Positions 1-4,599 of a stretch of 4,969 nucleotides of DNA are shown here, piece after piece. This DNA is from a virus (Duplodnaviria; Heunggongvirae; Uroviricota; Caudoviricetes). The position numbers and the translations under genes are program-made. The notes under the pieces are model-generated. The model ran no database searches and had not been told where the DNA came from. It saw only the letters and a list, made by a program, of their open reading frames with translations. How positions within the stretch are numbered: the first letter of the stretch is position 1; every line of letters begins with the position of its first letter. The stretch is from the IMG/VR virus record IMGVR_UViG_2690316166_000007; one strand, given 5' to 3'.

Positions 1-107
1 TACACTAAATCAGTAAGTTGGCAGCATCACCGAAGTGGTAAAGAAGATAATAAAGAATAATATTTAGGGTTATAGGTCTTAGCCCATTTTAAATGGAAGG
101 CAGACAT

Positions 108-462
108 NNNNNNNNNNNNNNNNNNNNNNNNNNNNNNNNNNNNNNNNNNNNNNNNNNNNNNNNNNNNNNNNNNNNNNNNNNNNNNNNNNNNNNNNNNNNN
201 NNNNNNNNNNNNNNNNNNNNNNNNNNNNNNNNNNNNNNNNNNNNNNNNNNNNNNNNNNNNNNNNNNNNNNNNNNNNNNNNNNNNNNNNNNNNNNNNNNNN
301 NNNNNNNNNNNNNNNNNNNNNNNNNNNNNNNNNNNNNNNNNNNNNNNNNNNNNNNNNNNNNNNNNNNNNNNNNNNNNNNNNNNNNNNNNNNNNNNNNNNN
401 NNNNNNNNNNNNNNNNNNNNNNNNNNNNNNNNNNNNNNNNNNNNNNNNNNNNNNNNNNNNNN
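108..462. other. Run of 355 N (assembly gap or masked sequence); content unknown
   Basis: Continuous n characters; flanks are AT-rich. Any ORF read through it is uninterpretable. Confidence 0.95.
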
Positions 463-513
463 CATGCTCCAGTGTGTATCTTTTTTGGGAGGGATTGGCT
501 GCAAATAATCAGA

Positions 514-954
514 NNNNNNNNNNNNNNNNNNNNNNNNNNNNNNNNNNNNNNNNNNNNNNNNNNNNNNNNNNNNNNNNNNNNNNNNNNNNNNNNNNNNNNN
601 NNNNNNNNNNNNNNNNNNNNNNNNNNNNNNNNNNNNNNNNNNNNNNNNNNNNNNNNNNNNNNNNNNNNNNNNNNNNNNNNNNNNNNNNNNNNNNNNNNNN
701 NNNNNNNNNNNNNNNNNNNNNNNNNNNNNNNNNNNNNNNNNNNNNNNNNNNNNNNNNNNNNNNNNNNNNNNNNNNNNNNNNNNNNNNNNNNNNNNNNNNN
801 NNNNNNNNNNNNNNNNNNNNNNNNNNNNNNNNNNNNNNNNNNNNNNNNNNNNNNNNNNNNNNNNNNNNNNNNNNNNNNNNNNNNNNNNNNNNNNNNNNNN
901 NNNNNNNNNNNNNNNNNNNNNNNNNNNNNNNNNNNNNNNNNNNNNNNNNNNNNN
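514..954. other. Run of 441 N (assembly gap or masked sequence); content unknown
   Basis: Continuous n characters. Separated from the first N run by a readable island of exactly 51 nt (463-513). Confidence 0.95.
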
Positions 955-1068
955 ACCATCCTTAGAGTTAAATAATTGAATGTCCACTCCAGCAGTTGGT
1001 TGTATATATTTTGAAAGCTCTTTCTTGAACTTGTTAATATATTTATCTTTGTTTTCTTTGTTGGTCAT
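955..1068 (-). CDS. Visible N-terminal 38 codons of an AT-rich gene of unknown function that runs leftward into the N runs; true length and stop unknown
   Basis: ATG at 1068-1066 on the - strand opens a frame (MTNKENKDKYINKFKKELSKYIQPTAGVDIQLFNSKDG) that stays open to the gap edge. The 51-nt island and the left flank are also open in this frame if gap lengths are taken literally, but gap lengths in scaffolds are estimates. Lys/Asn-rich, low-GC composition contrasts with the nin genes to the right. No obvious Shine-Dalgarno sequence. Confidence 0.4.
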
Positions 1069-1155
1069 TGGTTAGATCCATAGTTCTGGCTGTGATTAGG
1101 TGAAAGTATACAAGGTTTTTAAAGCGAAGATCACTGTTTTGGCTTCAAGATAGTT

Positions 1156-1245: not shown

Positions 1246-1336
1246 ACCACAATCTGAACTCATCACCTTGTCACAGATGCAGAAATGCACCTGCGATTTT
1301 CTGCATTCTGCGGTTTCCGTTAGGGAGGCCGTATGA
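1241..1336 (+). CDS. ylcH: Small ORF (31 aa, MRPQSELITLSQMQKCTCDFLHSAVSVREAV), positional equivalent of DLP12 ylcH; stop overlaps the ybcN start (ATGA)
   Basis: ATG at 1241 preceded by AAGGGGA 5 nt upstream; in-frame TAA immediately upstream limits the ORF to 31 codons. TGA at 1334-1336 overlaps the ybcN ATG at 1333-1335. Assigned by position; I do not remember the ylcH sequence. Below the length cutoff of the supplied ORF track. Confidence 0.4.
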   Translation: MRPQSELITLSQMQKCTCDFLHSAVSVREAV

Positions 1337-1788
1337 CTCTGCCAGTAGACGGCATCAAACTCCATCGCGGTAACTTCGCGGCCATCGGCCAGCAGATTCA
1401 GCCATTGCTGGATGCCGGGCAATGCTTACGCCTGCAGGTTAAGCCGTGGCGCGAGAAGCGCAGCCTGTCGCAGAACGCGCTCAGCCACATGTGGTACACG
1501 GAGATCAGCGAATATCTCATCGCCCGCGGCAAGACCTTCGCTACGCCTGAGTGGGTCAAAGACGCGATGAAGCACACCTATCTCGGCTACGAAAGCAAAG
1601 ACCGTGTAGATGTCGTGTCCGGCGAGGTCACCACCGTCCAATCCCTCCGCCATACGTCAGAGCTGGAAACCGGCGAGATGTACATCTTCCTGTGCAAAGT
1701 CGAAGCCTGGGCGATGAATATCGGCTGCCACCTGACAATTCCGCAGAGCTGTGAATACCAGCAGCTGCGCGATAAGCAGGAGGCGTAA
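1333..1788 (+). CDS. ybcN: YbcN, DLP12-type prophage protein (151 aa); recalled as an Orf/NinB-family recombination mediator with reported DNA base-flipping activity
   Basis: ORF 1333..1788 from the track; strong SD GGGAGG (1323-1328) 4 nt before the ATG. Protein matches my recollection of E. coli K-12 YbcN, and the downstream gene order ninE-ybcO-rusA-ylcG-quuD-nmpC matches DLP12. Confidence 0.85.
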   Translation: MTLPVDGIKLHRGNFAAIGQQIQPLLDAGQCLRLQVKPWREKRSLSQNALSHMWYTEISEYLIARGKTFATPEWVKDAMKHTYLGYESKDRVDVVSGEVTTVQSLRHTSELETGEMYIFLCKVEAWAMNIGCHLTIPQSCEYQQLRDKQEA

Positions 1789-1958
1789 TGGCTACACCGC
1801 TTATTCGTGTCATGAACGGGCACATCTACAGAGTATCAAATCGTCGTAAGCGTAAGCCTGAGCTGAAGCCATCCGAAATACCAACACTGCTCGGATATAC
1901 CGCTAGCCTGGTTGATAAAAAATGGTTGCGACTGGCAGCAAGGAGGAATCATGGCTGA
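1788..1958 (+). CDS. ninE: NinE-family small prophage protein (56 aa, [56 protein letters not shown])
   Basis: ATG at 1788 overlaps the ybcN stop (TAATG); SD AGGAGG at 1778-1783. Hand translation runs to TGA at 1956-1958. Basic, nin-region position. Too short for the ORF track. Confidence 0.8.
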   Translation: MATPLIRVMNGHIYRVSNRRKRKPELKPSEIPTLLGYTASLVDKKWLRLAARRNHG

Positions 1959-2241
1959 TTTGAGAAAAGCAGCGCGTGGTCGGGAATGCCAGGTAAGAAT
2001 CCCTGGCGTATGTAATGGCAATCCTGAAACGTCAGTACTGGCACATATCCGGCTGGCTGGATTGTGCGGTACCGGTATCAAACCGCCAGACCTGATTGCC
2101 ACCATTGCATGTTCTGCCTGTCACGACGAAATCGACCGCCGCACATATTTTGTCGATGCTGAGTATGCAAAAGAATGCGCGCTGGAAGGTATGGCGAGAA
2201 CGCAGGTTATCTGGCTGAAAGAGGGGGTTATTAAGGCGTGA
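1951..2241 (+). CDS. ybcO: YbcO (DUF1364), Cys-rich putative zinc-binding nuclease of the prophage nin region (96 aa)
   Basis: Track ORF 1912..2241 begins at a TTG. I prefer the ATG at 1951 ([14 protein letters not shown]...) because AGGAGG at 1941-1946 sits 4 nt upstream and the ATG overlaps the ninE stop (ATGGCTGA). Conserved Cys/His positions; matches recalled K-12 YbcO. Confidence 0.85.
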
Positions 2242-2600
2242 ATACCTACAGCATCACATTACCCTGGCCTCCGAGCAATAACCGCTATTACCGCCATAAT
2301 CGCGGGCGCACACACATCAGCGCAGAAGGGCAGGCATACCGCGATAACGTCACCCGAATCATTAAAAACGCAATGCTGGATATCGGCCTGGCTATGCCAG
2401 TGAAAATCCGTATTGAGTGCCACATGCCGGATCGCCGTCGCCGTGACCTGGATAATCTGCAAAAAGCCGCTTTTGACGCACTCACCAAAGCAGGTTTCTG
2501 GCTGGATGATGCTCAGGTCGTTGATTACCGCGTTGTGAAGATGCCTGTTACCAAAGGTGGGAGGCTGGAACTGACCATCACCGAAATGGGGAATGAATGA
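2238..2600 (+). CDS. rusA: RusA Holliday-junction resolvase (endodeoxyribonuclease RusA, 120 aa)
   Basis: Track ORF 2238..2600 with GTG start overlapping the ybcO stop (GTGA). Protein [24 protein letters not shown]...[25 protein letters not shown]... matches recalled E. coli RusA, including the acidic catalytic region. Confidence 0.9.
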
Positions 2601-2737
2601 TGTTTGAGTTTTATATGGCAGAACTTCTTCGCCACCGCTGGGGGCATCTGCGCTTATATCGTTTCCCCGGTTCTGTTTTGACCGATTACCGAATACTGAA
2701 GAATTACGCCAAAACCCTGACAGGAGCAGGAGTATGA
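2597..2737 (+). CDS. ylcG: YlcG-like small prophage protein (46 aa, [46 protein letters not shown])
   Basis: ATG at 2597 overlaps the rusA stop (ATGA). Hand translation ends at TGA 2735-2737. Position matches ylcG of DLP12; too short for the ORF track. Confidence 0.6.
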
Positions 2738-2822
2738 AGTCAGAGATAACAATCAACTAATACTGTTTTGTTGATTTTTGCTTGTAATTGGCGTTCTGGT
2801 CTGATTTTTGTGGAGTAAGTTG

Positions 2823-3206
2823 ATGCGTGATATTCAGATGGTTCTTGAGCGTTGGGGAGCGTGGGCGGCTAATAATCATGAAGATGTGACCTGGTCGTCC
2901 ATTGCCGCCGGTTTTAAGGGATTAATTACTTCAAAAGTAAAATCTCGCCCGCAATGTTGTGACGATGACGCGATGATTATTTGCGGGTGCATGGCCCGTC
3001 TGAAAAAGAACAACAGCGATTTGCACGATTTATTAGTAGATTATTATGTAGTCGGTATGACATTCATGTCACTGGCAGGTAAGCATTGCTGCTCTGATGG
3101 TTATATCGGGAAAAGGTTACAGAAGGCTGAGGGCATAATTGAAGGGATGTTAATGGCATTAGATATCCGGTTAGAGATGGATATCGTTGTTAATAACTCT
3201 AATTAA
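2823..3206 (+). CDS. quuD: Late-gene antiterminator Q of a lambdoid prophage (127 aa), DLP12 QuuD-type
   Basis: Track ORF 2808..3206 starts at a TTG. I prefer the ATG at 2823 ([22 protein letters not shown]...) with GGAG at 2812-2815, 7 nt upstream. Cys-rich segments ([21 protein letters not shown]). Position is immediately before the porin moron and terminator structures. Confidence 0.85.
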
Positions 3207-3394: not shown

Positions 3395-4599
3395 TTAGAA
3401 CTGGTAAACCATACCTACAGCAACGATATCATCGGTAGCAACGCCAGATGCTTTCGTGAAATCGCTCTTATCAATCAGGTTGATTTTGTAATCAACAAAA
3501 GTGGACATATTTTTGTTGAAGTAATAGGTTGCACCTACATCAATATATTCAACCAGGTCCTGATCACCCCACGCACCCAAGTCTTTTCCTTTAGATTGCA
3601 GGTAAGCAACGGACGGACGCAGACCGAAGTCGAACTGATATTGTGCAACTACTTCGAAGTTTTGTGCTTTGTTGGCAATATGGTTATTACCAAAAACAGT
3701 CATGTTCTGGGTTTCAGAATAGGTGGTAGCCAGATAGATGTTGTTCGCATCATATTTCAGACCAGCTGCCCATACTTCAGCATTTTGACCAGATGCATTC
3801 AGGCTGTTGTTACCGTAGATAACCTGATTATTAGTGCGGTCAGATTTAGCATAGGTTGCACCTACACCGAATCCTTCATACTCATAAGTAGTGGAGAAAC
3901 CGAAACCATCACCATTAGCTTCAGTTACGTCAGTGCGGTCATTTTTACCCTGATACTGAGCAGCAAAGTTCAGACCATCAACCAGACCAAAGAAGTCGTT
4001 GTTACGATAAGTTGCAACACCAGTGGTGCGACCAGTCATGAACACATCTGTTTGAGTCCAAGTGTCACCACCGAATTCTGGCAGGACGTCAGTCCACGCA
4101 CCGATGTCGTATGCTACACCGTAGTTACGGCCGTAATCGATGGAGCCGTAGTCACCGAATTTCAGGCCAGCGAAGGCAAGACGGGTTTTATCTTTGGANN
4201 NNNNNNNNNNNNNNNNNNNNNNNNNNNNNNNNNNNNNNNNNNNNNNNNNNNNNNNNNNNNNNNNNNNNNGTAGTCACCGAATTTCAGGCCAGCGAAGGCA
4301 AGACGGGTTTTATCTTTGGAGGAACCTTGAGATTCAGCGCGGTTGCCTTTGAATTCATATTCCCACTGACCGAAACCAGTCAGTTGATCGTTGATTTGGG
4401 TTTCACCTTTGAAGCCAAGACGGGCATAAGTAGTATCACCATCATCTGCATCATTAGAGGAGAAGTAGTGCTTAGCATTAACTTTCCCGTACAGATCCAG
4501 CTTGTTACTGTCTTTATTATAAATTTCAGCTGCCTGAGCAGACATCGCCATCAGTACTGATGCAGCTACAGCAGAAATTGCCACTGTTAATTTTTTCAT
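3395..4599 (-). CDS. nmpC: General outer-membrane porin of the OmpC/OmpD/NmpC family (prophage moron); reading frame split in this assembly by an N gap plus a duplicated 51-mer
   Basis: ATG at 4599-4597 gives [23 protein letters not shown] / [17 protein letters not shown]..., a signal peptide with AQA cleavage motif. The C-terminal part (track ORF 3395..4045) ends ...VGMVYQF with the terminal Phe typical of beta-barrel OMPs. Removing the 122-nt gap-plus-duplicate joins ...[14 protein letters not shown] to [27 protein letters not shown]... in frame, giving 361 codons including the stop. Confidence 0.8.
4148..4320. repeat. Perfect 51-bp direct repeat (4148-4198 and 4270-4320) abutting both edges of a 71-nt N run (4199-4269); most likely an unmerged contig-end overlap
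   Basis: GTAGTCACCGAATTTCAGGCCAGCGAAGGCAAGACGGGTTTTATCTTTGGA occurs twice, ending exactly at the gap start and beginning exactly at the gap end. 51 + 71 = 122 nt, not a multiple of 3, which accounts for the apparent frameshift in the porin. Confidence 0.85.

Follow-up and report, generated by a model that had tools for sequence, protein, structure and literature searches.

The window analysed here is the whole 4,969-nucleotide (nt) stretch of DNA in the IMG/VR virus record IMGVR_UViG_2690316166_000007; it belongs to a DLP12-like lambdoid prophage from Escherichia coli or Shigella. Near its left end, between the replication gene P and the nin module (ylcH/ybcN), lies a cassette of about 0.97 kb on the minus strand that corresponds to approximately 61-1154 of the window. 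The cassette holds two small genes, here called A and B. Gene A (691..1068, minus strand) has 378 nt and encodes a soluble protein of 125 amino acids (aa), WP_000182282.1 in the uropathogenic strain E. coli 536. Gene B (139..694, minus strand) encodes a protein of 142 aa, WP_000608370.1 in the same strain. Its true length is 429 nt, and its span in the window is nominal and about 127 nt too long owing to the oversized runs of N in this region. The two proteins belong to undescribed families, and the pair may serve as a mobile module for defence against, or exclusion of, other phages.

The initial annotation had described a single, mostly masked gene at 79-1068. This reading was based on a formal open reading frame (ORF) of 329 residues (79..1068, minus strand) in the program-made ORF list, where 796 of the 990 nt are N. 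The N belong to two scaffold gaps, at 108-462 (355 N) and at 514-954 (441 N), the second of which contains the A/B junction. The three readable pieces were 100% identical to E. coli 536 (locus L002), at three different offsets. In the complete genomes, the first gap spans 319 nt and the second 350 nt, which means that the N counts are too large by 36 and 91 nt, respectively. Since the gap lengths are wrong and the pieces are found at different offsets, a frame carried through the gaps is meaningless. In the complete genomes with identical flanks, the pieces belong to three different features: 955-1068 is the start of the 125-aa gene, 463-513 lies inside the 142-aa gene and 79-107 is non-coding. 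The stop codon at 79-81 (minus strand), which ended the long ORF, is located in an intergenic spacer. That the readable pieces might belong to different short ORFs had been foreseen in the initial annotation, and this is what was found. For a single accessory gene of about 329 aa speaks the open frame that the ORF list gives across the N runs, but this frame depends on the 796 N, its pieces map to the complete genomes with differing offsets, its 79-107 portion is non-coding, and 46 complete genomes and at least 40 further loci show two genes of 125 and 142 aa. We give the single gene practically no credence and regard it as almost certain that the ORF is an artefact of reading through the scaffold gaps and that the slot contains two genes.

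A third run of N (4199-4269, 71 N) is found in the region 4148-4320. Identical 51-mers are present on either side of this run, and the flanks have a 51-nt overlap in E. coli 536. Therefore, the gap does not exist; it is spurious and represents contig ends with a k=51 overlap that was left unmerged. The length of the readable island at 463-513 is likewise exactly 51 nt. In E. coli CV839-06 (L001 5202-5969), an insertion sequence (IS), IS1, splits gene A after codon 49. An IS1 copy hidden in the second gap of the window, as in CV839-06, is unlikely because the right-hand contig begins 31 nt past the CV839-06 insertion site and the gap estimate of 441 does not come near 1127 nt. In hundreds of draft genomes of Shigella sonnei, A or B was present only as partial copies where contigs end, for example on contigs of 331 nt, which shows that assemblers often break within the A-B cassette, as they did in the window. 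The initial annotation's suggestion that such breaks reflect low coverage of AT-rich DNA is speculative. In scaffolded drafts, an ORF that extends across runs of N cannot be relied upon; the gap lengths here deviated by −51 to +91 nt from the stated N counts.

The 3' end of gene A was positioned by the anchor in the right flank (window coordinate = L002 coordinate − 5046), where 955-1297 of the window matches L002 6001-6343 with 100% identity. Residues 1-38 of the protein can be read directly in the window (955-1068): MTNKENKDKYINKFKKELSKYIQPTAGVDIQLFNSKDG. Protein A has no signal peptide and no transmembrane (TM) segment. It is matched by PHROG 18061 with an E-value of 9e-85, a group labelled 'unknown function'. 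The AlphaFold2 (AF2) model of A, obtained from an alignment of only 8 close sequences, was poor with a predicted local distance difference test (pLDDT) score of 55; modelling suggests an alpha-beta-beta-(alpha)-beta-beta-alpha sandwich as the fold. Invariant or near-invariant in the A family are Y10, G39, F84, G86, T87, K100, W107 and D115.

From gene B, the window shows residues 31-47, SDYLQPIPPKKDTHWSM, at 463-513, which corresponds to L002 5600-5650 with 100% identity. The start of B overlaps the end of A by 4 nt (ATGA), and a GGAGGG Shine-Dalgarno sequence is found within the end of A. A and B are translationally coupled. For B, AF2 predicted a short N-terminal domain of some 40 aa (a hairpin plus a helix, with low confidence) and, C-terminal to it, three long helices (46-68, 71-100 and 103-141), which have a pLDDT of 83-91 and agree with the hydropathy. 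B is predicted to be a membrane protein with three TM segments and a soluble N-terminal domain. PHROG 16940 matches B with an E-value of 2e-96 and is likewise labelled 'unknown function'. Two more specific identities of B were considered and rejected. The IMG auto-label 'VIT1/CCC1 family transporter' corresponds in Pfam to sub-threshold TM noise only. A class I holin, which has three TM segments, was not supported by any holin match in Pfam or PHROG, and the lysis genes essD/rrrD/rzpD are located elsewhere.

When divergent alleles were compared (the synonymous divergence, dS, of both cassette genes was 0.6-2.5), the ratio of non-synonymous to synonymous divergence (dN/dS) was 0.07-0.08 for gene A and 0.09-0.13 for gene B. 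A and B are thus real genes under strong purifying selection (dN/dS 0.07-0.13), and their full-length homologues share many invariant positions. The prophage itself is ridden with IS elements: an IS1 end is present at 1-31 of the window, IS1 has entered A in CV839-06, and in one IMG/VR contig (L032 6309-6799) gene B is split by a frameshift into two ORFs; the last two cases are natural knock-outs of A-B. The pair could on these grounds be regarded as decaying, non-functional debris, i.e. pseudogenes of a defective DLP12-like element. Such a decay is very improbable given the selection acting between the divergent alleles, and nearly every copy has both genes intact and at full length, with conservation across phyla.

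The limits of the cassette were set at about 61-1154 because the homology to HK639, CobraSix and phi80 begins only near position 1155 of the window. Of 5426 complete E. coli genomes, 46 contain the cassette with at least 99% identity, among them E. coli 536, whereas the adjoining upstream region of ybcN is found in 2778. The G+C content (GC) of the cassette is low, in E. coli 10-20 points under that of its flanks. In the window, it was 0.30 for 955-1068, 0.37 for 1069-1154, 0.43 for 463-513 and 0.36 for 61-107, compared to 0.50 for the nin side (1333-3206). The complete cassette of E. coli 536 has a GC of 0.35 and is flanked by DNA of 0.50-0.60. The low GC and the strand opposite to ybcN, ninE, ybcO, rusA, ylcG and quuD had been pointed out in the initial annotation, and both were confirmed by the GC of the window and by the mapping. 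Its interpretation as horizontally acquired accessory (moron) cargo was also upheld by the low GC, the patchy presence and the location in a variable slot at the replication/nin junction. The cassette fits the description of a moron, with a divergent base composition and a patchy presence between genes that are adjacent elsewhere.

In enterobacteria, A-B always resides at the replication/nin junction and on the opposite strand. In other respects, the host prophages are mosaics, with O/P, DnaB-type or DnaC-type replication genes and with differing Q antiterminators. A comparison of the slot among other lambdoid phages, which the initial annotation had recommended, showed that different genes lie there between the replication genes and ninB/ybcN. 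Lambda, HK639 and CobraSix have unrelated genes of the same strand in the slot, namely ren, an eae-like gene and a gene for the theta subunit of DNA polymerase III (pol III theta). A-B resembles the cargo that is known between P and ninB (ren of lambda, ybcL/ybcM of DLP12, and the ren-like, eae-like and pol III theta genes of HK639) in that it occupies the same variable slot, differs in composition from its flanks and is carried by a minority of the related prophages. Unlike these genes, A-B lies on the opposite strand and is also found far outside the lambdoid phages. A homology to Ren was rejected after a negative comparison, and the occupants in HK639 and CobraSix are also unrelated in sequence. 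In one prophage (L008 3665-5348, GCA_030132385.1), a colicin-like gene (377 aa, weak match to PF01024) and a colicin-immunity-like gene (174 aa) are located between NinB and A-B, as a second cargo in the slot.

The region directly upstream of gene A (1069..1154, minus strand) is private to the cassette and contains a −10-like hexamer, TATACT, at 1105-1110. The hexamer is kept as TATACT, TATGAT or TATAAT in divergent cassettes, about 35-36 nt 5' of the A start codon. The cassette may have its own promoter near 1105-1110, judged from this conservation. A stable double hairpin (z = −3.3) without a U tract follows 3' of the B stop codon. It is plausible from these signals that A-B is an independent transcription unit. 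When the window and the complete cassette were scanned with Rfam, no RNA family was detected.

Known relatives of the two proteins were searched for in several databases. Scans with Pfam, NCBIfam and PADLOC gave no match to A or B, and profile searches of the PDB with A and B were empty. The same scans of 84 relatives of A and 11 relatives of B detected nothing beyond the HNH part of one fusion protein and sub-threshold TM noise. Among 50,697 GenBank phage records, no DNA or protein match to the cassette was found, and a search of the literature found no paper naming the A/B accessions, the PHROG ids or the sequences. The gene content is therefore uncharacterised, as had been assumed in the initial annotation, with no entry in these databases and the label 'unknown function' for both PHROGs. 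The profile searches and the comparison with defence catalogues proposed there were run on the full A and B proteins and recovered no known family. It had also been considered that the slot might contain ybcL/ybcM or an IS transposase. Neither is the case: RefSeq annotates two hypothetical proteins, and IS1 is confined to 1-31, outside the cassette.

Word-indexed searches detected 13 clusters for A and 17 for B, all of them from Enterobacteriaceae and all named 'hypothetical'. By an exhaustive HMMER search with the A profile, the A family was extended to at least 109 representatives, of which 30 had E <= 1e-10. With few exceptions, the representatives have 120-135 aa and match over their full length. 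Genome loci of the A relatives were found in Deltaproteobacteria, Acidobacteriota, Myxococcota, Bacteroidota and Betaproteobacteria; the distant loci were obtained with an alignment of a 14-sequence A subfamily. Four relatives of A are encoded on non-enterobacterial viral contigs of IMG/VR. Wherever A stands alone and downstream sequence is available, a homologue of B follows directly 3' on the same strand (47/47 loci, including ten outside the training set of the B model), with a spacing between a 17-nt overlap and a 45-nt gap. When the distant partners were aligned with the enterobacterial B by hhalign, a probability of 96% and an E-value of 2e-9 over 118 columns were obtained, which identifies them at the profile level as B homologues. 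Three of the four distant viral contigs have a pair whose GC is 10-13 points lower than that of the contig. Taken together, the sequence comparisons indicate that A-B is an ancient, self-contained and horizontally mobile two-gene unit of undescribed families.

The sole member of the A family without B is a protein of 447 aa (P0105, L022 246-1589), in which the A domain (residues 7-119) is joined to an HNH nuclease and to about 200 aa of further soluble sequence. No TM segment is present in the fusion, and the contig stops 77 nt past the gene. This fusion points to a role of A as a regulatory or sensor module that may couple to different effectors.

We then considered the genomic neighbourhoods of the pair. 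In one genome (L011), A-B is located immediately 5' of BrxA/BrxB of a bacteriophage exclusion (BREX) system. In a Bacteroides locus (L017 51-8922), the genes for a HKD+Snf2 helicase, two unknown proteins, Type III Mod, A, B and Type III Res follow each other on one strand, i.e. A-B is embedded in a Type III restriction-modification (R-M) operon. The pair adjoins PIN and DUF4160/DUF2442 genes in L009, lies beside a weakly matching LeoBC-like gene in L018, and is placed between a C5 methylase and a GIY-YIG protein in L031. Mobile elements are also found close by: two transposases flank A-B in L016, and a prophage integrase adjoins it in L028. On a small plasmid-like metagenome contig (L024 3-3080), a 43%-identical A-B pair is arranged in the order Rep-like ORF, A, B, MobC and relaxase. 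The defence-type role that the initial annotation had suggested is plausible from this genomic context.

The architecture of the pair, its strict coupling, its mobility, the low GC, the patchy distribution and the neighbourhoods are features that immunity or addiction cargo would be expected to show. We consider it an evenly balanced question whether A-B is a mobile two-gene defence or exclusion module with B as the membrane effector. In such a module, the cassette would be transcribed in the lysogen from its own promoter, independently of the pR early operon. The cytoplasmic A would act as a sensor, a regulator or an antitoxin-like inhibitor of B, probably via the N-terminal domain of B. Upon phage infection, B would be released or activated as a small, oligomerising effector in the inner membrane. 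Active B might then damage or depolarise the inner membrane or block the entry of DNA, and the superinfecting phage would be aborted or excluded in the manner of RexA/RexB, with unrelated proteins. More tentatively, and with somewhat less confidence than in the module as such, we propose that A-B represents an undescribed and widespread two-gene anti-phage system with a cytosolic sensor, alternatively fused to HNH, and an effector with three TM segments, which occurs as a moron in lambdoid phages and as a module in BREX and Type III R-M islands. If A-B is a defence or exclusion module, it would extend the immune repertoire of prophages by a very compact system, with only 267 aa in all, which is built from two protein families that have no entry in Pfam, NCBIfam, PADLOC or the PDB. 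The lambdoid replication/nin junction would then be a promising place to look for further cargo. As a conserved two-gene module associated with defence islands and mobile elements, the cargo is of greater interest than a strain-specific ORFan would be.

Several observations weigh against a defence role. The function of A-B is inferred. Defence-like or toxin-antitoxin (TA)-like neighbours (BREX, Type III R-M, weak LeoBC and PIN/TA-like) occur in 4 of about 10 non-enterobacterial chromosomal loci, which is a raw count from a small sample without a background rate, and 3 of these about 10 loci have housekeeping neighbours only (ValRS, YceD/EAL and a CLC channel). None of the 5027 PADLOC models (PADLOC-DB 2.0) matched either component, and A and B are absent from the DefensePredictor and Vassallo supplements of E. 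coli defence screens. The A-HNH fusion comes from one cluster, on a contig of 1.7 kb. The consensus scans for promoters and terminators performed no better than on shuffled sequences, and their predictions are weak. The intactness of the genes was read from other genomes, as the window itself shows only residues 1-38 of A and 31-47 of B.

The gene order and the 4-nt ATGA overlap are also found in type II TA operons. A-B might accordingly be an addiction module that stabilises the mobile element, with B as a membrane toxin and A as the coupled antitoxin, where exclusion would be secondary or absent. The carriage on a small mobilisable plasmid, the TA-like PIN and DUF4160/DUF2442 neighbours, and the occurrence on prophages and between transposases are in line with this. 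However, A has no recognisable DNA-binding or antitoxin domain, and the A-HNH fusion and the embedding in R-M/BREX operons are more easily reconciled with a defence sensor than with addiction alone. In addition, the addiction and the defence readings overlap, since many TA systems act as abortive-infection systems. We consider a primary role in addiction unlikely, although it is not a negligible candidate. Compared with type II TA systems that have a membrane-acting toxin, A-B shares the two small genes, the 4-nt overlap, the putative neutraliser encoded upstream and the patchy distribution on prophages and plasmids. It differs in that no known toxin or antitoxin domain is present and no DNA-binding fold is evident in A.

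The housekeeping neighbours at several loci and the fact that no defence catalogue recognises the pair could also point to an accessory membrane function outside defence, such as lysogenic conversion, envelope or ion homeostasis, stress or the regulation of a neighbour, with the carriage on mobile elements being incidental. The automatic annotation of B as a VIT1/CCC1-type transporter would fit here, but this label has no support in Pfam, and a protein of 125-150 aa with three TM segments is small for a transporter. The strict pairing, the low GC, the presence in 46 of 5426 genomes and the placement on mobile genetic elements and in defence islands argue instead for selfish or immune cargo. 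A non-defence function is in our view rather unlikely.

Returning to a defence or exclusion module, the closest functional analogue of A-B may be RexA/RexB of lambda, in logic only. In the lambda Rex system, the cytosolic sensor RexA (279 aa) activates the membrane effector RexB (144 aa). Like Rex, A-B consists of two adjacent prophage genes for a cytosolic protein and a small polytopic inner-membrane protein (B has 142 aa), and both are accessory cargo outside the lytic operons. Rex is expressed in the lysogen, and lysogen expression is proposed for A-B, as are the sensor-then-effector logic and the corresponding gene order. In contrast to RexA, A has only 125 aa, and B has three predicted TM helices and an N-terminal soluble domain. 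The A-B genes overlap and are located at the replication/nin junction, whereas the Rex genes lie in the immunity region of lambda. When the proteins were compared by hhalign, probabilities of 1.4% for B and RexB and of 0.3% for A and RexA were obtained, i.e. no homology.

There are also parallels to defence systems whose TM or nuclease effectors can be exchanged, such as the cyclic-oligonucleotide-based anti-phage signalling system (CBASS), Thoeris, retrons and Kiwa. The A domain is mostly paired with a TM protein and once fused to HNH, and A-B adjoins BREX and lies inside a Type III R-M operon. Unlike these systems, A-B has no cyclase, TIR domain or reverse transcriptase, consists of two very small proteins only and shows no homology to PADLOC models except in the HNH part.

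At the left boundary of the window, positions 1-31 are a terminal inverted repeat of IS1, with the IS extending to the left; they are the reverse complement of the IS1A end in the CV839-06 locus. The repeat is joined to the final 29 nt of gene P (32-60, stop codon at 58-60), and 31-107 of the window maps onto an annotated 'replication protein P'. This exact junction was found in 0 of 5426 complete E. coli genomes. Since the IS1 end is fused to the last 29 nt of P, the source genome carries this gene in a truncated or interrupted form. A non-coding spacer (61-107) separates the P stop codon from the 3' end of gene B and maps to L002 5234-5280. Within this spacer, the terminator scan showed a terminator-like hairpin of the plus strand at 67-85, followed by ATTTT.

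On the right side of the cassette, the nin-side genes are encoded on the plus strand, beginning with a ylcH-like ORF (1241-1336) and ybcN (1333-1788), and including ninE, ybcO, rusA, ylcG and quuD. A porin gene of the nmpC/ompC type lies on the minus strand and contains the N run at 4199-4269. Just 5' of the ylcH-like ORF and ybcN, at 1222-1245, a perfect 10-bp inverted repeat is found, CGCATTTAAG nnnn CTTAAATGCG. In phi80, the matching region carries the label 'IR4', and in the phage 82 record X92588 it is called 'possible regulator-binding site'. When folded as an RNA, the repeat gave a fold z of about −2.5 on either strand.

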